A DNA stretch of 64,000 nt from an uncultured Gammaproteobacteria bacterium (GTDB lineage: Bacteria; Patescibacteriota; Microgenomatia; Levybacterales; UBA12049): the NCBI GenBank assembly GCA_964512695.1, contig CAZEJU010000001.1, positions 71,803 to 135,802 on the forward strand, given 5' to 3'. The position numbers and the translations under genes were made by a program. Under the pieces are notes generated by a model. It did no database searches. It was given only the letters and a program-made list of their open reading frames with translations, and was not told the DNA's origin. Within the stretch, counting starts at the first letter, position 1, and each line of letters starts with the position of its first letter. This document shows, in pieces, positions 1,210 through 51,265 of the stretch.

Positions 1210-1288
1210 TTAAAAGTCAAAAGGTAAAAATTAAAAGTCTTTTGCAAGTGAACTCTTAACTTTTGACTTTTGACTTTTAACTTTTAAT
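1209..1288. repeat. Intergenic hairpin element built from tandem heptamers (ttaaaagtcaaaag ... cttttgacttttgacttttaacttttaa)
   Basis: Inverted arms of ttttgac/ttttaac heptamers read directly from the sequence. Related copies at 23891-23966 and 36486-36550. Position suits a serA terminator. Confidence 0.6.
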
Positions 1289-8663: not shown

Positions 8664-9242
8664 CTACTTCGCATTTCTCATAGTCACCGAAGATTGAAAA
8701 ATAACCGAAGAAGGGTCATCCAGAAAAGATGTCTTCACTATTTTATCTATAGTAAAACTCACACCAATAGTATAAGGATTATCCGAAGCTGACTGGGTAC
8801 ATGTAAATGTGCAAGCAGTCATCTGATATGTAGTGTTATCAATAAGCGAAGCGCTATTCGAAGCAACTGTTTGAGGATTACCACCGCATGAAAAAGTTGT
8901 CTGACCACCGTCAAGTGCAGTAAATCTAACATATCTATATGTGGTTAGGGAACTTGATGATGGAAGTTGACAAACTTTCGTATACGTAACATTATCGTTA
9001 CTGACACCATCAAATAATTCCGCGTACTGTAGCATTTTTGTCATCTGCGTTATCGCGTAATTACCATTTTGTTTTATAGTTTCTAAATTATTTATTTTCT
9101 TAACACTTCTAAGTGAAATAAAAAAAACAGCGGCAATGGTAGAAGTGACTGTGGCAAGTACCACTAAAGAAATAAGTAATTCAACCAAGGTGAAACCTTT
9201 CTGAATTGAGAATGGAGAATTGAGAATGGAGAATTTTTTCAT
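8664..9242 (-). CDS. Type IV prepilin-like protein (minor pilin)
   Basis: KGFTLVELLISLVVLA prepilin cleavage/methylation motif. Unusually long 16-aa leader whose codons lie in a heptamer-repeat arm. Confidence 0.7.
   Translation of the reverse strand: MKKFSILNSPFSIQKGFTLVELLISLVVLATVTSTIAAVFFISLRSVKKINNLETIKQNGNYAITQMTKMLQYAELFDGVSNDNVTYTKVCQLPSSSSLTTYRYVRFTALDGGQTTFSCGGNPQTVASNSASLIDNTTYQMTACTFTCTQSASDNPYTIGVSFTIDKIVKTSFLDDPSSVIFQSSVTMRNAK
9203..9236. repeat. Half-copy of gagaatt heptamer element inside pilin 5' end
   Basis: tgaattgagaatggagaattgagaatggagaatt. Translates to FSILNSPFSIQ in the pilin leader. Confidence 0.55.
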
Positions 9243-13576: not shown

Positions 13577-13626
13577 GAGACGTGAGAATGCAAAGAAGTA
13601 TATGTAATTCTCAATTCTCAATTCTT
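13577..13626. repeat. Intergenic hairpin element, gagaatt heptamer family
   Basis: gagacgtgagaatg opposed by taattctcaattctcaattctt. Lies between pilT stop and pilC start. Confidence 0.5.
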
Positions 13627-13628
13627 TA

Positions 13629-14711
13629 TTAACCCTTGGCCATTCTTAATAATTCTTGTTCATGAAGAGCGTATGCACGTGCTTCGTCGAGAGTCACGAC
13701 TCCACCAAGAACAAGTTGTGCCAGAGAAGCTTCTAGGGTCATCATGCCTATATCCTTTGACGTCTGGATGACAGAATCGATAAGGTGTGTTTTTCCATCC
13801 CTGATATTACTTGCTATAGCAGGATTGCCTATAAGTATCTCAGTCGCCGCAACTCTTCCACCACCAATTCTTGGAACAAGCCTCTGCGATACGATACCAC
13901 GAAGAATTGCAGCAAGCTGAACTTTTATTTGTGCGCGCTGGTGGTCAGGAAACGCATCTATGATACGGTCGACACTTTGGGATGCGGAATTCGTGTGTAA
14001 CGTAGCAAATACCAAATGTCCTGTTTCAGCAAGAGTAATTGCCGCTTGAATAGTCTCGGGATCGCGCATTTCTCCTACGAGAACCACATCAGGATCTTCA
14101 CGTAATGCAGCACGAAGTGCCATAGGCCATGAATGTGTATCTTGGCCAAGCTCTCGTTGGGACACAATACTCATTCCAGCTGGATATATATACTCTATTG
14201 GATCTTCAATCGTTAAAATATGTACGGGCTTTGTCATATTTATTTCATTCAGCATTGCAGCTAGTGTAGTTGATTTACCATGACCGGTCGGACCAGTTAC
14301 TAGAACAAACCCTTGCTTTAAACTAGCAAGTTCATGGCAAACTTTCGGCAAACCTAACTCGTCTATTGAACGGATTTTGGGAGGAAGATAACGGAGTGCA
14401 GCTGCTAAATATCCCCTTTGATAATATGCATTAATACGGAAACGTCCCTCATCTCCATAAACACCACCACCATAACCGTATGAAAAATCTAACTCCTTAT
14501 TTGTAATTAATAGTTCTTTTTGTTCTGCGGTTAAAAGGGAAGCAACCATTTGCTCAATGTCATGGGGTTGTAAAACTGGATAATTTTTTACACCTTTCAA
14601 CACACCATCTATACGCAGGGTAGGTGGTATTCCTGCCAATAAATGCAAATCTGACCCTTTACTTTTAACAGTAAGTTCTAATAATTTTAATATTTCGCTC
14701 GTTACAGGCAT
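13629..14711 (-). CDS. pilT: Twitching-motility (retraction) ATPase PilT
   Basis: Walker A LVTGPTGHGKSTTLAAM. PilT-type motifs AALREDPDVVLVGEMRD and GHLVFATLHTNSA. Start trimmed to MPVTSEIL, because the upstream extension is translation of a repeat. Confidence 0.85.
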   Translation of the reverse strand: MPVTSEILKLLELTVKSKGSDLHLLAGIPPTLRIDGVLKGVKNYPVLQPHDIEQMVASLLTAEQKELLITNKELDFSYGYGGGVYGDEGRFRINAYYQRGYLAAALRYLPPKIRSIDELGLPKVCHELASLKQGFVLVTGPTGHGKSTTLAAMLNEINMTKPVHILTIEDPIEYIYPAGMSIVSQRELGQDTHSWPMALRAALREDPDVVLVGEMRDPETIQAAITLAETGHLVFATLHTNSASQSVDRIIDAFPDHQRAQIKVQLAAILRGIVSQRLVPRIGGGRVAATEILIGNPAIASNIRDGKTHLIDSVIQTSKDIGMMTLEASLAQLVLGGVVTLDEARAYALHEQELLRMAKG

Positions 14712-14715
14712 ATTT

Positions 14716-14798
14716 GAATTGAGAGTTGAGAGTGGAAAGTTGAGAGTTATTAAGAAACTTATTAAATATTTCTCAATTCTCAACTTTCAATTATCAAT
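14716..14798. repeat. Intergenic hairpin element, gagaatt heptamer family
   Basis: tgaattgagagttgagagtggaaagttgagagtt opposed by tctcaattctcaactttcaattatcaattt. Abuts the pilB stop. Explains spurious ORF 14719-14916. Confidence 0.65.
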
Positions 14799-16583
14799 TT
14801 ACTCTTGTGCGACTCTCAGTACTTCTTCTATTGTCGTTAAACCCTGCAGAACTTTCAAGTACCCGTCTTGCTTTAAAGTAATCATTCCTTCTACAGCTGC
14901 TTCTTTTTCTATTTGAGCTGTATCAGCACGCTCTAAAATCAAACGGGCAATTTTATCGGTTACTGACAAAACTTCAAAAATTCCGACTCTTCCTGAATAT
15001 CCGGTTGAACCACATTCTTGACAACCTTCTCCTTTATATAATCTCATATCATCAGATATTTTTGAAGAGAGTGTACCAAGTACTTCTTTTATTTCAGTTA
15101 TAATTTGCTTTGGTGGAACATAATTAGTTTTACAACTATCACATATTCTTCGAACGATCCTTTGGCCTACAATAGCATTGAGAGTCGAAGAAAGAAGAAA
15201 TCCCTCAGCACTTAGATCTAGTAAACGTGGTAAAGCTCCTGCCGCGTTTGAAGTATGAAGTGTTGAAAAGACGAGATGACCTGTTAACGCAGCTTGAATT
15301 GCCAGATCAGTTGTTTCTCGATCACGGATTTCTCCTACTAAGATAATATTTGGATCTTGTCGTAGAAATGAACGCAATCCCGATGCAAATGTTAACCCTA
15401 CAGCAGGATTTATCTGTACTTGGTTAACACCAGCTAGCTGATACTCTACTGGATCTTCGAGTGACATAATATTAACTTTAGGCGTATTCAATTTCGAAAG
15501 AATAGAGTAGAGCGTAGTAGTTTTACCACTACCTGTAGGACCACACACAATAATAATGCCGTGAGGTCGAAGTATAGCCAACTCCAGACTTTTCAAAGAT
15601 ATTCCTGTCAAACCTAATTCAGCTAAAGAAGGTACTCCTCCAGATTTACGTAAAAGTCTCATGACGACTTTTTCACCTGTAACAGTAGGAACTGTCGATA
15701 TACGAAGGTCAACTTCTTCACCACCAACTTTAAAGTTAAATCGTCCATCCTGAGGGGTTCTTCGCTCATCAATCTTCATTTCAGAGAGAATTTTAATACG
15801 GGAAATTAAAGCTTCTTGTACATTGCGGGGAAGACTAAGCTTGTCATATAAGATGCCATCAATTCTATACCGTACTCGGAGACGATCGTCTTGGGGTTCT
15901 ATATGGACATCTGATGCTCTACTCGAAACTGCATATTCTAAAATAGTTGAAAGAATTTTAGCTATAGGTGCTTCTTTAATAATTTGTGTCAGCTGTTTAC
16001 TATCAACGACACGCTTCTTTGTGTACGCTTCGGTTTCCTGAATTGCTTTACCCACTTCGCCCACGAGTTCTTGTCTGTATTGTTGCTGGATTGCTTCTTC
16101 AATTTCCTTGGGATTTGCTGCAAATGATTTAATTATCAGCTGTGTTTTCTGTCCTATAAACGCAATAGCATCTAGATCTACCGGATTTGCCATAGCTATA
16201 GAAAGCGTTTTGGTTTTATCATCATAGGAAAAAGGAATTACTTTAAATCTTTCAACTACGGCTTGAGATAAAAAATTTAATGCTTGAGGTGAAAACGATA
16301 TCGTGGAAAGAGAAATATAAGGAATTCCTAGTAGCTTTGCCCGCGCCTGAGCAATTTGCTCATCATCAACAAGGTGCATTGCGAGAAGAATTGCTTCTCG
16401 AGATTTACCCGTTGAAGCACTTTTTACTTTTATATCCTCATACTGCTCCTTTGTGATAATATGATCAATAAAAAGAACATCTACTATCGATTTCGCTTCT
16501 TCTATTTGAGATAAAGTAAACGAAGGATCAGATGTTTTTGTATCAGATACGTGTGGAACAAGTACATCAGTATCACTGGGCAT
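14799..16583 (-). CDS. pilB: Type IV pilus assembly (extension) ATPase PilB (GspE family)
   Basis: Walker A CGPTGSGKTTTLYS. N-terminal GSPII_E_N-like domain. C-terminal tetracysteine CDSC...CQEC. Confidence 0.85.
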   Translation of the reverse strand: MPSDTDVLVPHVSDTKTSDPSFTLSQIEEAKSIVDVLFIDHIITKEQYEDIKVKSASTGKSREAILLAMHLVDDEQIAQARAKLLGIPYISLSTISFSPQALNFLSQAVVERFKVIPFSYDDKTKTLSIAMANPVDLDAIAFIGQKTQLIIKSFAANPKEIEEAIQQQYRQELVGEVGKAIQETEAYTKKRVVDSKQLTQIIKEAPIAKILSTILEYAVSSRASDVHIEPQDDRLRVRYRIDGILYDKLSLPRNVQEALISRIKILSEMKIDERRTPQDGRFNFKVGGEEVDLRISTVPTVTGEKVVMRLLRKSGGVPSLAELGLTGISLKSLELAILRPHGIIIVCGPTGSGKTTTLYSILSKLNTPKVNIMSLEDPVEYQLAGVNQVQINPAVGLTFASGLRSFLRQDPNIILVGEIRDRETTDLAIQAALTGHLVFSTLHTSNAAGALPRLLDLSAEGFLLSSTLNAIVGQRIVRRICDSCKTNYVPPKQIITEIKEVLGTLSSKISDDMRLYKGEGCQECGSTGYSGRVGIFEVLSVTDKIARLILERADTAQIEKEAAVEGMITLKQDGYLKVLQGLTTIEEVLRVAQE

Positions 16584-23890: not shown

Positions 23891-23966
23891 AGTTAAAAGT
23901 CAAAGGCAATAAGTTTCTATTGTACTTTTAACTTTCAACTTTTGACTTTTGACTTTTAACTTTTAT
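23891..23966. repeat. Intergenic hairpin element, ttttgac heptamer family
   Basis: agttaaaagtcaaagg...tacttttaactttcaacttttgacttttgacttttaacttttatt. Same family as 1209-1288. Confidence 0.6.
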
Positions 23967-44595: not shown

Positions 44596-46212
44596 TTACT
44601 TCATTGCCGAGCTATGAATTTTATCTATCGTTTCTCTCGCCACACTCATACTAGTGATAAGATGAACATTCTTCGCGACAGCTTTTTGGCGGATAGTAAA
44701 TCCATCACTTTTCTCATGTTCTTTCGGTCTTCTTCCTGTAGGAATATCGATAATCAAATCAAAACGATTTGCATCTAAAAGATCTGTTAAATTTGGTTTT
44801 CTAGCCTGTGAAATTTTATATATAAGTACAGCTTCAATATTATTTGTTTTGAGGAATTTATGTGTTTTATAAGTGGCGTATAATTTATAACCATTTTCTG
44901 ATAATTTCTTTATATAAGGTAGTAATTTTATTTTGTTTTTTCTACCGCCTATTGTAACAAGAGCGGTTTTTTCACTTCTTCTCGCAAGCTTCATTTGTAA
45001 AGTATAAATTTCTATAAATCCTGCCGAGGCATTTTGATTAAATGCAGTTGAGGCCATAAATGTCGCTAGTTTCTCCTGGAAAATAGAGTTTGGTGTTTCA
45101 GTCGCCACAGGTTCTACTAGTCCTTTATATAATGTAAGTGTTACCTTACCAGTTACTTTCTTATTAACCTGATCTATATACGCATTTAAATCATTCATGA
45201 GCGGTTCATACCAGAGACCGCCGTAGCAAAGATACGCCCATTTCGTATCGACAATTGATTTGAATTCATTTTCCAAACGTGTAGACACATACTTTTCTAG
45301 ATTCCTATGTGCAGTAATTATTATTTCTGCTGCAGGAGCCTCGTATAAACCGCGGACCTTTAATCCGACAACTCGATCTTCTATATGATGAGCTAATCCA
45401 ATCCCATGCTTCGCGCCTATTTCGTTTAGTCGTAATATAATTTGCGATAATTTCATAGGCTTACCATTAAGGGCGACGGGTATACCTTTAATAAACTCCA
45501 ATTCGACTTTTTTAGGTCTATTCGGAGCATTTTCTGGAAGAGTACTTATAAGGAGAATGTTCTCTAAAGGAGGAATTAATGCAGGATTTTCTATCTCTCC
45601 ACCTTCACCAGTTACACCCCACATATTATCATCATATGAATACAGCTTGTCCGCAGTTTGACGAACTGGAATCCCATGTTTTTTTGCATAGAGAATTTCT
45701 TCATCTCTACCCATAGACCATTCGCGGACTGGAGCTATAATCTTAATATCCGGATTAAGTGTTAATGCAGTTCCTTCTATGCGTACTTGATCATTTCCTT
45801 TTCCTGTACAACCATGAGCAATGGTATCTGCGCCTTCTTGGGCTGCAATTTTTACTGCCCATTTAGCTAGAAGAGGTCTGCCAAGTGGAGTGGAAAGATA
45901 ATATCGTCCTTGATAAGAACCATTTGCTTTAATACCCTTGGCTATGTATTCATTCGCGAATTCATCTTTGGCATCAATAACATATGATTTGATAGCGCCG
46001 AGTTTTAATGCTTTGTTTTTAATTTCTTCTAAATCGTCAGTTTGCTGACCTATATCTATGCAGAGCGCGATAACTTCTGCATTATATTCCTCCTGAATCC
46101 ACTTGAGCATTACTGATGTATCAAGACCTCCAGAATAGAGGAGAACTACTTTTTTTACTTCACCCTTTTTCCCCTCGTATGATGCAACTCGTTGATAAAC
46201 GTTATCTTTCAT
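44596..46212 (-). CDS. argG: Argininosuccinate synthase fused to C-terminal MGS-like domain
   Basis: LLYSGGLDTS PP-loop and ArgG core to about residue 400. C-terminal ~140 aa with DLIIDIPTG resembles the MGS-like allosteric domain. Confidence 0.75.
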   Translation of the reverse strand: MKDNVYQRVASYEGKKGEVKKVVLLYSGGLDTSVMLKWIQEEYNAEVIALCIDIGQQTDDLEEIKNKALKLGAIKSYVIDAKDEFANEYIAKGIKANGSYQGRYYLSTPLGRPLLAKWAVKIAAQEGADTIAHGCTGKGNDQVRIEGTALTLNPDIKIIAPVREWSMGRDEEILYAKKHGIPVRQTADKLYSYDDNMWGVTGEGGEIENPALIPPLENILLISTLPENAPNRPKKVELEFIKGIPVALNGKPMKLSQIILRLNEIGAKHGIGLAHHIEDRVVGLKVRGLYEAPAAEIIITAHRNLEKYVSTRLENEFKSIVDTKWAYLCYGGLWYEPLMNDLNAYIDQVNKKVTGKVTLTLYKGLVEPVATETPNSIFQEKLATFMASTAFNQNASAGFIEIYTLQMKLARRSEKTALVTIGGRKNKIKLLPYIKKLSENGYKLYATYKTHKFLKTNNIEAVLIYKISQARKPNLTDLLDANRFDLIIDIPTGRRPKEHEKSDGFTIRQKAVAKNVHLITSMSVARETIDKIHSSAMK

Positions 46213-46217
46213 AAATC

Positions 46218-46241
46218 AAAAAAAAAGACCTTTCGGTCTTT
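46218..46241 (-). terminator. Rho-independent terminator-like hairpin (aagacc-tttc-ggtctt followed by U9 on the minus strand) immediately 5' of argG
   Basis: Plus strand reads aaaaaaaaa gacc tttc ggtc ttt. On the minus strand this is a stem-loop followed by a T9 run, 5 nt upstream of the argG ATG. Confidence 0.4.
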
Positions 46242-46382
46242 AAACTAAAAAATTAAGTAACTGATGCTTCTCAATGCATACGTTTTCTAAAAAATCTGTA
46301 AATATTTGAGAAAAATTGCTTTTTACCATTACAGTTACTGTAAAGAATTACATGATATATGTCAACTATAAAAAACTGTATC

Positions 46383-46470
46383 ACTACTAACTACTAACTA
46401 CTAACTACTAACTCATGACTCATAACAGGTAACTCGTAACTCATAATTCACAATTTGTAACTGCAAACTA
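46383..46470. repeat. Tandem heptamer array (CTAACTA)n degenerating into TAACTNN units
   Basis: ctactaactactaactactaactactaactcatgactcataacaggtaactcgtaactcataattcacaatttgtaactgc. 7-nt periodicity visible. Confidence 0.7.
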
Positions 46471-46597
46471 AGATTATAATTGACCGCCTAAAAACAATTT
46501 AGTACAATCTCATGAGATAAAGAACTAAGACAAACTATCATGCAGTTTGTTTTTTCGTTTTTTAGCCTACATGTAATTCGCACGTTAATACTGCATA

Positions 46598-46650
46598 AAA
46601 AGTCACGGCAGAGAGAGGAGAAAATGACTGTCTCTTTTGTCTGCCGTGAC
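46598..46650. repeat. GC-rich 13-bp-stem hairpin (aagtcacggcaga...tctgccgtgactt)
   Basis: Perfect 13-bp inverted repeat. Immediately precedes the RBS of the small basic ORF. Confidence 0.55.
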
Positions 46651-46710
46651 TTTATGGGATAAGTTACGGTGGCCACGGGACCAATCCCGAAATACCTCAT
46701 AGGAGAGGTT

Positions 46711-46857
46711 ATGGCTAAGAAAAAGCCAGGAGTGGTGCAACATCCTCGAAAGCGTGAACATCGAGACAAGCCCAAGCCGAAAGCGATCATGAAGAACGCG
46801 CGGAAATGGGATGCACGAGCAAAAATGTCTGCTCGAGAGAACGCACCGCCTGACTAA
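46711..46857 (+). CDS. Small highly basic protein (48 aa) of unknown function
   Basis: AGGAGAGG RBS 2 nt before ATG. Sequence MAKKKPGVVQHPRKREHRDKPKPKAIMKNARKWDARAKMSARENAPPD. About 50% GC against a ~33% background. Confidence 0.4.
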   Translation: MAKKKPGVVQHPRKREHRDKPKPKAIMKNARKWDARAKMSARENAPPD

Positions 46858-46896
46858 ACCATCACACTCTCGACTTAACCCTAAGTTTGCAGTACC

Positions 46897-46928
46897 GTGT
46901 TCGGGGGCAGCAGACATCTGTCTGCTGT
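46897..46928. repeat. GC-rich hairpin (ggggcagcagaca-tc-tgtctgctgtcccc)
   Basis: 13-bp stem with one bulged T. Follows the stop of the small basic ORF. Confidence 0.5.
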
Positions 46929-46987
46929 CCCCACAGTTGTTAATTATCCCTTTGACAATTCATCGTCATTTTCGGTAATATATCTCT

Positions 46988-47761
46988 ATGAAACAGATTC
47001 CACCATCTGTACAAACATCACTTTTAACTGTTCTTTTTACATTCTTTTTCCTCTATATTTTTGCCCGGCTCTTCGGTCCAATACCTTTCTCAGTAAACAG
47101 TATTACAACACTGAAATCTGACTTATTTACTGTAAGTGGAGAAGGGGAGGCGACTGCAGTTCCTGATACTGCAGTACTTAATTTAGGAATTACAGAAAAC
47201 GCTTCAACAGTAGAGCAAGCAAAAAATAGCGTTAATGAAAAAGCTAATCAAATAATAGAAGCATTTAAAGAACTCGGTATAGAAGAAAAGAATATTAAAA
47301 CTACAAATTATTCAGTTTACCCAAATTATGACTATACGAATGGAAAAGAGAGGATTACAGGATATAATGTTTTTCAAAACCTCGAAGTAGAAGTTTCTCC
47401 CATAGAAAAAGCAAATCAAGCTGTAGATGTAGCAACTGAAAACGGTGCGAATATGATGGGGAATATACGATTTACGCTCAATGATGAAGATAGAGAAAAA
47501 CTTGAAATGCAGGCTCGAGAGAATGCTATTAGAAAAGCTAAAAGTAAAGCTTCCTCTATCGCTAATGCTTCCGGAATCCGGCTAGGAAAACTTATTAATG
47601 TTTCAGAAGCTAATGAGCAAGTATATCCTCCGATTTTGTATGATGAAAAATCTATAGCATTACAGGAAGGTGGAAATAGAACAGAAGCTCAAACAACAGG
47701 TTTACAGCCTGGTGAAAACAGTATAAAAGTATCCGTCACCCTCTCCTACGAAACTTTATAA
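46988..47761 (+). CDS. SIMPL-domain (DUF541) protein
   Basis: N-terminal signal-anchor. Composition and length typical of SIMPL/YggE-like proteins. Confidence 0.55.
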   Translation: MKQIPPSVQTSLLTVLFTFFFLYIFARLFGPIPFSVNSITTLKSDLFTVSGEGEATAVPDTAVLNLGITENASTVEQAKNSVNEKANQIIEAFKELGIEEKNIKTTNYSVYPNYDYTNGKERITGYNVFQNLEVEVSPIEKANQAVDVATENGANMMGNIRFTLNDEDREKLEMQARENAIRKAKSKASSIANASGIRLGKLINVSEANEQVYPPILYDEKSIALQEGGNRTEAQTTGLQPGENSIKVSVTLSYETL

Positions 47762-47811
47762 TCTTTCCTGGATTAAAGTGAAATTGTAGCACGAGAATCT
47801 AAAAGATTTGG

Positions 47812-48747
47812 TTACTTATTCCCTGAATGAAAGGATTTATGGACATCACGTAATTGTTTATTCGTAACATGCGTATAGATTTGGGTAGTAGCGATATTTT
47901 TATGACCAAGCATTTCCTGAACTGAACGTAAATCCGCGCCATTACTGAGTAAATCAGTCGCAAATGAATGCCGTAAAGTATGCACAGAAGCATCTACAGG
48001 TAGGCGAGCCATCTTTACATACTTTTTAACCATACGCTCTACACTTCTCACAGTTAAACGCATCTTTTCCCCGTCATTTTCCGATTCAATTCTTCCGGAA
48101 TAACGAATAAATAATGGCCGATATCTATCAGTTCGAACTTCCAAGTATCTCCCTAACCAGTCCACCGCCCTGTCAGATACGAATACGACACGAGCCCGTC
48201 CACCTTTTCCTATAATACCGAATTCGCCTCTATCAAAATTAATCTGGTCATGATTAAGTTTTACTAACTCTGATACGCGTAATCCTGTAGAGAAGAGTAG
48301 TTCTAAGATCGCACGATCCCGGAGGCCGTCTTCTTTCGATGTGTCTGGCATAGTAACCAGTTTTTCTACTTGTTCACGATCAAGAAACTTAAGTGACTTA
48401 CTTTCCGCTTTAGGAAGTTCAAGCTTAGCAGGTTCGACGGTTTTAAAGTCATTTTTAATAAGATACTTTAAAAATGATCTAAGGGCTATAACATAATAGT
48501 TTTGTGTGACACGCTTAATTGTCCGGCCTTTATCGTCAGTTTTATTTACCAAGTAAATTCTGTAGCGACGGATGATTTGTAAATCCAAATCTTCAAACTT
48601 CTTTTCAGGATAATTCTTTTTTAACCACTCAGAAAAAGTCCCAAGATATAACTTATAATTACGAATTGTTAGCTTCGAACAATTCCTTTCAACTTCTAAG
48701 TATTCCAAGAAATCCTGGATTAGTTCTGGAAGGCGGGGAGCAGACAT
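47812..48747 (-). CDS. xerD: Tyrosine site-specific recombinase XerC/XerD family
   Basis: LRDRAILELLFSTGLRVSEL, GKGGRARVV, HTLRHSFATDLLSNGADLRSVQEMLGHKNIATTQIYTHV (R-H-R-Y catalytic set). Confidence 0.85.
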   Translation of the reverse strand: MSAPRLPELIQDFLEYLEVERNCSKLTIRNYKLYLGTFSEWLKKNYPEKKFEDLDLQIIRRYRIYLVNKTDDKGRTIKRVTQNYYVIALRSFLKYLIKNDFKTVEPAKLELPKAESKSLKFLDREQVEKLVTMPDTSKEDGLRDRAILELLFSTGLRVSELVKLNHDQINFDRGEFGIIGKGGRARVVFVSDRAVDWLGRYLEVRTDRYRPLFIRYSGRIESENDGEKMRLTVRSVERMVKKYVKMARLPVDASVHTLRHSFATDLLSNGADLRSVQEMLGHKNIATTQIYTHVTNKQLRDVHKSFHSGNK

Positions 48748-51106: not shown

Positions 51107-51235
51107 ACTAGACTAACTACTAACTTCTAACTGCTAACTACTAACTTCTAACTGCTAACTACTAACTACTAACTGCTAACTGCTAACTGCTAACTGCTAA
51201 CGACTAACTTCTAACTACTAACTTCTACCTTCTGA
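51107..51235. repeat. Tandem heptamer array (TAACTNN)n, about 18 units
   Basis: taactac taacttc taactgc taactac taacttc taactgc taactac taactac taactgc x4 taacgac taacttc taactac taacttc. Same unit and orientation as 46383-46470. Confidence 0.75.
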
Positions 51236-51265
51236 CTCGTAAGTGGGAAAACTCCTCTATCGTAC

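Follow-up and report, generated by a model that had tools for sequence, protein, structure and literature searches.

Ribosomal protein bS21, the product of rpsU, is small and very basic. Its C-terminal helix anchors the protein to 16S rRNA, and its N-terminal helix covers the anti-Shine-Dalgarno (anti-SD) sequence and is the part that diverges in the S21 proteins of phages (PMC9723584). Phage-encoded S21 genes have been documented, as have bS21 paralogues that alter the specificity of the ribosome (PMC9723584, PMC7550191, PMC9578407). In the Bacteroidia, where SD sequences are nearly absent, rpsU of Flavobacterium johnsoniae is the sole gene with a strong SD; it is transcribed alone and autoregulated by ribosomes without bS21 (PMC9976891, PMC7797042). 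An ordinary, detectable bS21 is present in most Microgenomates (PMC9297842). Together, these precedents make an extra, foreign S21-like gene plausible. Another relevant class of loci is found in AT-rich genomes, whose long GC-rich intergenic regions are enriched for structured RNAs and short open reading frames (ORFs; PMC6429828). Here, we analyzed a GC-rich islet (46598..46933, + strand) in a stretch of 64,000 nucleotides of contig CAZEJU010000001.1, hereafter called the window. The islet contains an ORF for a basic peptide of 48 aa (46711..46857, + strand). The explanation we favor, with our confidence evenly balanced, is that the islet is a lineage-specific piece of foreign DNA with a truncated and diverged rpsU-like ORF, either a relic or an accessory copy.

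When the peptide was compared with the PDB, six chains were matched, all of them bS21 (E 0.15-2.5). The alignments are ungapped and place residues 4-45 of the peptide (46720-46845) on residues 24-65 of S21. They are collinear over 42 of the 48 residues and take in both the RKREH..KP core and the AK..ARENA helix, where AKMSARENA of the peptide (KKPGVVQHPRKREHRDKPKPK...AKMSARENA) aligns with AKKLARENA of gammaproteobacterial S21. In the core, the peptide reads G-V-V-Q-H-P-R-K-R-E-H-R-D-K-P-K, where the S21 motif is R-[KR]-R-E-[FH]-Y-E-K-P-[ST], preceded by G-x-[LV]. The residues R, K, R, E, H, K, and P match, while Y is replaced by R, and S or T by K. A single-sequence AlphaFold2 (AF2) model of the peptide consists of one helix, spanning residues 23-44 (pLDDT about 88), which under the alignment coincides with the C-terminal helix of S21 and, if the model is right, could anchor the peptide to rRNA in the same way. 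As expected for a single helix, a Foldseek search with this model gave no matches. The peptide thus resembles bS21 in being small and very basic, in carrying the patterns G-x-x-Q-x-x-R-K-R-E-H-x-x-K-P and A-K-x-x-A-R-E-N-A, and in having a predicted long C-terminal helix in register with them.

This similarity exceeds what the amino-acid composition of the peptide explains, as judged from shuffled controls. Four composition-matched shuffles of the peptide found either no match in the PDB, or a single unrelated one at E 2.3. Smith-Waterman scores against five S21 sequences ranged from 46 to 68, where shuffles scored 28 +/- 5, and for four of the five not one of 5000 shuffles reached the score of the peptide. 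Against a profile of our own, built from 47 IMG/VR S21 sequences and the S21 proteins of E. coli and B. subtilis, and narrower than the curated models, the peptide scored 16.0 bits (P 6e-7), while the maximum of 3000 shuffles was 13.1 bits. With the same profile, the ORF ranked first among the 11,856 open frames of at least 30 aa in 746 kb of sequence (the window and 80 related loci), at an E of about 0.014 for that set. Essentially only the ORF at 46711-46857 was matched when these 746 kb were searched by tblastn with S21 queries, and an hhalign comparison of the peptide with S21 gave a P of 5.8e-4.

A number of observations weigh against homology. The peptide goes unreported by the curated models, Pfam PF01165 and NCBIfam rpsU, even with E relaxed to 10. 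The probability assigned by hhalign is only 29%, the runner-up in our profile scan scored 11.3 bits and is a clear chance match, and correction for all families brings the E-value to about 0.1-0.5. No viral S21 passes a tblastn comparison with the peptide, and the DNA is not similar to any rpsU. Neither the ORF nor its upstream extension encodes the N-terminal strand and the ALRRFKR helix, the latter being the most conserved element of S21, and none of the six frames of the intergenic region does so either; the peptide has 48 aa, compared with 55-90 aa for bS21. In addition, the conserved F-Y of REFYEKP is replaced by H-R. As most Microgenomates have an ordinary bS21, the ORF would, if expressed at all, be an extra copy. 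Finally, the islet had no relative in the collections that we searched. A longer, ancestral S21 frame starting at the ATG at 46624 was considered as well, and rejected: it is in frame, but is broken by a TAA at 46660, and brings no gain in S21 score. On balance, we regard homology of the peptide to bS21 as somewhat favored, because the matched protein is, like the peptide, small and basic and of comparable length, and because the alignment runs collinearly through 42 of the 48 residues. The small nucleic-acid-binding protein that the preliminary description had suggested has gained a concrete candidate in bS21, a 16S-rRNA-binding protein whose residues 24-65 the peptide resembles, although the match is borderline.

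Searches for closer relatives of the peptide were negative. A word-indexed search of 5.8 billion protein clusters returned none that shared even three 5-residue words with it, and a full HMMER search over 1.84 billion representatives gave nothing at E up to 1e-3. By a rough estimate, a query of 48 aa needs about 40 bits to pass a library of the latter size. Such a cut-off can be passed by close relatives only, making this negative result compatible with remote homology. The peptide matched no family in Pfam, PHROGs, NCBIfam, or PADLOC, and scans of the JGI metagenomes and IMG/VR with the back-translated peptide gave no true relative. Two viral matches from these scans were rejected as chance, being portal proteins of phages with nothing in common with the peptide beyond the seeded MAKKKPGV. 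Likewise, blastn of the islet DNA against phages, plasmids, and E. coli gave nothing.

If the peptide is indeed derived from bS21, the ORF would be a copy of the bS21 gene that has diverged strongly and lost its N-terminal part. It would have retained the connecting segment and the core G-V-V-Q-x-x-R-K-R-E-H-x-x-K-P, along with the basic C-terminal helix A-K-x-x-A-R-E-N-A, and would lack both the N-terminal strand and the helix overlying the anti-SD, ALRRFKR. Its donor was probably an SD-using genome of about 50% GC, either an S21-carrying phage or another bacterium. At present, the ORF may be a decaying relic or, if the peptide is made, may encode an accessory bS21-like peptide that binds the 30S platform. 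As a candidate monocistronic gene with an SD, it resembles the S21 genes of phages, with AUAGGAGUGACU upstream, as well as rpsU of F. johnsoniae. Strong flanking hairpins set it apart from viral S21 loci (n=44), where the median energies were -10 and -12 kcal/mol, compared with -35 and -34 kcal/mol at the islet. In IMG/VR, 225 viral contigs encode S21 relatives, and many of these viral proteins have an N-terminal basic insert (MPSIDLRPRKRHPKDKRP...) ahead of a PFDVALRKF helix and are preceded by an SD of the AUAGGAGUGA type.

The islet is compositionally foreign to its surroundings, with GC content, GC3, codon usage, and SD use all beyond the range of the host. Its GC content is 0.509, which is the maximum of the 64 kb and lies 4.3 sd above the mean of 336-nt sliding windows (0.356, sd 0.036). 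The conspicuous GC richness of the patch, from which the preliminary description had started, was thus borne out. All parts contribute to the excess: hairpin 1 (0.44), the spacer (0.52), the ORF (0.52), the 3' region (0.48), and hairpin 2 (0.63). The codon index of the ORF is 0.50, below the minimum of 0.54 over 1333 host windows of 48 codons, and its GC3 is 0.50, with a host maximum of 0.44. None of its seven arginine codons is AGA, the favorite of the host.

The same holds for the start of the ORF. A ribosome-binding site (RBS), AGGAGAGG, is located at 46701-46708, followed by the ATG at 46711, and the translation is exactly the basic peptide that the preliminary description had given together with this RBS. 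The predicted SD duplex has an energy of -7.6 kcal/mol, compared with a host median of -2.1, and among 54 host genes, 5 have an energy of -7 or below; the 16S tail used in these calculations is an assumed canonical one. An in-frame SD-like site between -30 and +90 was found for just 1 of 55 host genes in the window. On the other hand, 24 of the 55 have a -10-like TAnnnT, often a perfect TATAAT, 4-16 nt ahead of the start codon. Taken together, this suggests that initiation in the host is mostly leaderless or SD-independent. While a 48-codon ORF with an ATG is by itself not beyond chance, appearing in 22% of composition-matched shuffles, the combination of SD, ATG, and an ORF of at least 48 codons appeared in 0.34%.

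Two strong hairpins bound the islet, as the preliminary description had noted, and the first is longer than it had described. Hairpin 1 (46599..46653, + strand) has arms of 23 nt (46599-46621 and 46631-46653) that are 87% complementary. They form 14 perfect pairs, followed by a G/G mismatch and 8 further pairs, of which 2 are G.U, and enclose a loop of 9 nt. The predicted energy amounts to -35.1 kcal/mol on the + strand and -26.0 on the minus strand, with a z of -9.6 relative to shuffles. Hairpin 2 (46903..46932, + strand) lies 46 nt 3' of the ORF stop and consists of 13 Watson-Crick pairs and one G.U pair around the loop AUCU (arms 46903-46916 and 46919-46932), with energies of -27.9 and -22.6 kcal/mol on the + and minus strands and a z of -6.7. 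The two are the strongest local hairpins containing G and C in the 64-kb window and, like the GC level, are clearly beyond chance. They also share a 10-mer, TGTCTGCYGT, which occurs in the same orientation in hairpin 2 and in the 3' arm of hairpin 1 and has 3 matches in the window where 0.08 are expected. In 682 kb of related genomes, perfect GC-rich hairpins are few. Some of these directly follow the stop codon of argG, are flanked by A/T tracts, and look like terminators.

Under the favored explanation, the + strand would give rise to a monocistronic transcript, with a long 5' stem-loop, an SD of which part pairs with ACCUC upstream of it, then the ORF, and a 3' stem-loop; the two stem-loops would mark the boundaries of the transcript. 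The pairing of the SD is found in both the minimum free energy and the centroid fold, as a small ACCUC/GAGGU stem (46694..46709, + strand) that takes in part of AGGAGAGG. All three non-Watson-Crick transition pairs of the two stems read as G.U on the + strand, which is also where each stem folds with the lower energy; this weakly favors an RNA read in this direction. Two features point the other way. Hairpin 2 is not followed by a U-tract on either strand, as an intrinsic terminator would be, and hairpin 1, which is preceded by A5 and followed by T3 (UUUAU after the stem on the + strand), has as a result U5 directly after its stem on the minus strand. Together, these make the + strand a tentative choice.

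Upstream of the ORF, hairpin 1 holds a second SD-like site with an ATG. An SD-like purine tract, GAGAGGAGAAA, followed by the ATG at 46624 in the hairpin loop (46613..46662, + strand), has an energy of -13.6 kcal/mol with the assumed 16S 3' tail and is paired inside hairpin 1, 90 nt upstream. From this ATG, a mini-ORF of 12 codons, MTVSFVCRDFMG, which shares its frame with the main ORF, runs to the TAA at 46660. Further upstream is a putative promoter, TTGACC-17-TACAAT (46480..46508, + strand), with 10 of 12 consensus matches, whose orientation would likewise fit a + strand RNA. A perfect 10-bp palindrome, TCTCATGAGA (46508-46517), overlaps its -10 end and could be an operator. Between this site and hairpin 1 lies an AT-rich stem, ACAAACT/AGTTTGT, followed by a T-run (46530..46563, + strand); read directly from the sequence, it is weakly terminator-like and falls under the G-C pair threshold of our scan.

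Alternatively, the islet could be an orphan unrelated to S21, its similarity being due to chance: either a stable small RNA of the + strand, bounded by stem-loops at its 5' and 3' ends and containing the ORF by accident, or a small ORF specific to this lineage. We consider this unlikely, though far from negligible. Long, GC-rich intergenic regions in AT-rich genomes are where structured RNAs and short ORFs are enriched (PMC6429828), and the islet resembles the candidates described there in being far richer in GC than the genome and in having predicted structure. The fold of the whole islet has a z of -7.5, the G.U pairs favor the + strand, and both the ease with which a 48-codon ORF arises in shuffles and the loss of significance of the S21 match upon all-family correction fit this explanation too. 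However, the islet differs from these candidates in that it has no family of relatives and no Rfam match, and in that two perfect hairpins dominate its structure. The sequence outside the two hairpins folds only mildly better than shuffles do, with a z of -2.1 for the + and -3.3 for the minus strand. The perfect, bulge-free stems do not resemble those of evolved structured RNAs, no homologue is present in relatives, and the S21 matches are specific, collinear, and absent for shuffled controls.

The structured noncoding RNA that the preliminary description had offered as a further option did not fare better in searches for known RNAs. A search of the region against Rfam 15 at E up to 1 returned only sub-threshold matches to plant miRNA precursors, which are due to the long hairpin. 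Scans of the whole window with Rfam at gathering score and with ARAGORN for tRNA and tmRNA placed nothing in the islet. An Rfam family covering the region, the result to which the preliminary description had looked as a counterargument, was therefore not obtained. Two other candidates were rejected as well. A type I toxin-antitoxin toxin does not fit the peptide, which is hydrophilic and basic and has no hydrophobic helix in the AF2 model. As for the template repeat of a diversity-generating retroelement, the best match at non-A positions in the window was 59%, which is noise, and no variable-repeat copy was found.

On the minus strand, two ORFs overlap the islet, of 104 aa (46603..46917) and 100 aa (46488..46790). 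Their dismissal as artefacts of GC content in the preliminary description is supported: neither has a homologue among the 5.8 billion protein clusters or a match in the family libraries, and we rejected them as real genes. On the + strand, the islet has 30% A and 19% T, and the antisense strand is therefore poor in A, a bias that makes long stop-free frames on it more likely. Among shuffles, 11% had an open minus-strand frame of 104 or more codons, although only 1% had a start-to-stop minus-strand ORF of at least 100 aa. The 104-aa ORF is best seen as an artefact of composition, and the 100-aa ORF as a similar case.

The islet is situated in an intergenic region of 775 bp. To its left is a gene for argininosuccinate synthase (argG) fused to an MGS-like domain (44596-46212, minus strand, 538 aa), and to its right a SIMPL/DUF541 gene (46988-47761, + strand). 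Relatives of ArgG place the window in the Microgenomates, among Levybacteria- or Roizmanbacteria-like Patescibacteria. In the closest relative (locus L002), ArgG is 90% identical and the argG and SIMPL neighbors are the same, but genes for an ABC ATPase and an ABC permease lie between them. The similarity of this locus to the window ends at 46253 and restarts at 46952, in the conserved SIMPL promoter. In another relative (L021), yet another gene occupies the slot. The islet thus occupies a variable position, with the divergent promoters of argG and the SIMPL gene on either side. The preliminary description had named absence from, or variability in, related genomes in advance as a refuting test, and absence was indeed observed: nothing similar to the islet was found in the 80 related loci, including the syntenic slot of L002. 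No trace supports the idea that the islet is a remnant of the ABC transporter genes of L002, which was rejected. Analogous GC-rich intergenic islands in the 80 related loci were rejected as well, as the GC peaks in these loci turned out to be 16S rRNA or to lie inside long ORFs.

This break in synteny, together with the foreign composition and the strong boundary hairpins sharing TGTCTGCYGT, could also be explained if the islet were the relic of a hairpin-ended miniature mobile element, of the IS200/IS605-type PATE or foldback kind, with the ORF as incidental cargo. A single transposase would then recognize both subterminal hairpins. The ends of IS200/IS605 elements and PATEs do resemble the islet in having hairpins at both ends and a shared core sequence, and the left end of IS200 carries a terminator hairpin and a stem that occludes the RBS. 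However, the islet is single-copy wherever we searched, carries neither a transposase nor a target-site signature, and has stems that are only partly alike. Neither the 64 kb nor 682 kb of relatives contained a second copy, and none was found in the JGI metagenomes, IMG/VR, or the phage and plasmid collections. The hairpin arms do not recur elsewhere in the window, and scans for the hairpin pattern found 8 unrelated palindromes in metagenomes and 0 in IMG/VR. Terminal inverted or direct repeats of at least 8 nt were not found at the islet, nor did any of the three ORFs tested show homology to a transposase. We therefore consider a miniature element improbable; of the foreign miniature element put forward in the preliminary description, the foreign composition stands, while the mobile element is not supported.

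Quite improbable, too, is that the ORF encodes a working bS21-like protein or paralogue of the host itself, controlled by its SD in analogy to rpsU of the Bacteroidia. In favor of the parallel, F. johnsoniae provides a precedent (PMC9976891, PMC7797042) and the window likewise represents a nearly SD-less genome in which the S21-like ORF is among the few SD-led frames (-7.6 kcal/mol). The extended SD-like tract of -13.6 kcal/mol, 90 nt upstream and in the same frame, adds to it. The parallel with the Bacteroidia is only partial, however. The tract is buried in hairpin 1, and the frame opened by the ATG that follows it soon meets a stop. The SD of the ORF itself is ordinary and not extended, whereas the Bacteroidia mechanism needs an energy below -13 kcal/mol, with the caveat that the 16S tail was assumed to be canonical. 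Moreover, the host is a Patescibacterium, and the ORF is truncated, lacking the N-terminal helix, with a codon usage and GC content far from those of the host. No orthologue was found in the 5.8 billion clusters, even though relatives with a 90% identical ArgG exist, and a standard bS21 is present in most Microgenomates.

An assembly artefact, whereby a chimeric join or contaminating reads would have come to lie between genuine host genes, is extremely improbable: the islet is a singleton of foreign composition, and the sole public contig identical to the locus (L001, a contig of Logan SRR11524805 corresponding to 46767-47920) starts inside it, leaving the left junction without independent support, but this contig spans the right junction at 100% identity and continues into the SIMPL and recombinase genes, both flanks are host genes that are neighbors in L002 too, and the sequence immediately 3' of hairpin 2 (CAGTTGTTAAT) is similar to the end of the heptamer array in L002. 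The start of this contig in the middle of the ORF could reflect low coverage or a branch point, that is, strain polymorphism, within the islet. In exact look-ups of four proteins of the window, only the SIMPL protein was on record, on a 1.15-kb Logan contig.

The heptamer arrays are a wider feature of these genomes. Tandem arrays with a period of 7 bp, with units such as AACTTTT, AACTCTC, and ACTAACT, are found in many intergenic regions of the window (1251-1287, 2597-2677, 9203-9235, 13606-13625, 14719-14748, 23924-23965, 46383-46450, and 51112-51237), one of them about 150 nt to the left of the islet, as well as in L002 (1745-1805), which has (CAGTTGT)x9 beside its SIMPL gene. The array at 51112-51227 comprises 16.6 copies. 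A 93-nt inverted repeat (2597-2689 and 14707-14799), with arms 12 kb apart that are 90% complementary, is made of such arrays. On the argG side of the intergenic region, a terminator-like stem, AAAGACC-GAAA-GGTCTTT, with a T-run (46224-46241, minus strand) abuts the argG ATG at 46212; it is conserved in L002 and may be an attenuator or operator for argG, upstream of which there is also a promoter-like site at 46365-46337. A total of 374 relatives of ArgG were confirmed, of which the best 80 match over the full length (residues about 1-535) and thus include the C-terminal MGS-like extension. Many GTDB records with an ArgG-MGS of the Patescibacteria type are titled "uncultured Gammaproteobacteria bacterium", and look like mislabelled metagenome-assembled genomes.

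If the ORF is a decaying fragment, the islet would be an ordinary trace of horizontal transfer in a variable intergenic slot, and would mainly caution against equating GC-rich, hairpin-rich islands with structured RNAs. In our reading, the islet does not represent a new class of structured RNA, but possibly a minimal variant of bS21 in a nearly SD-less Patescibacterium. Should the link to S21 hold and the ORF be translated, the product would be a minimal derivative of bS21, found in a lineage known for reduced ribosomes and in a genome almost without SD sequences. It would then bear on how the composition of the ribosome tunes the choice of start sites, as do rpsU of the Bacteroidia, the bS21 paralogues of Francisella, and phage S21. 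By analogy with these systems, one could imagine an "anchor-only" bS21, with the 16S-binding core and the C-terminal helix but no helix to cover the anti-SD, which would have arrived on mobile DNA and would compete with the bS21 of the host, shifting the choice of mRNAs for initiation. We regard this as a long shot, and equally so its corollary that the ORF is a rare SD-led message in a largely leaderless host, with stem-loops that set its stability and translation. If true, however, it would represent a device for ribosome specialization, in the style of phages and bS21 paralogues, within the candidate phyla radiation.

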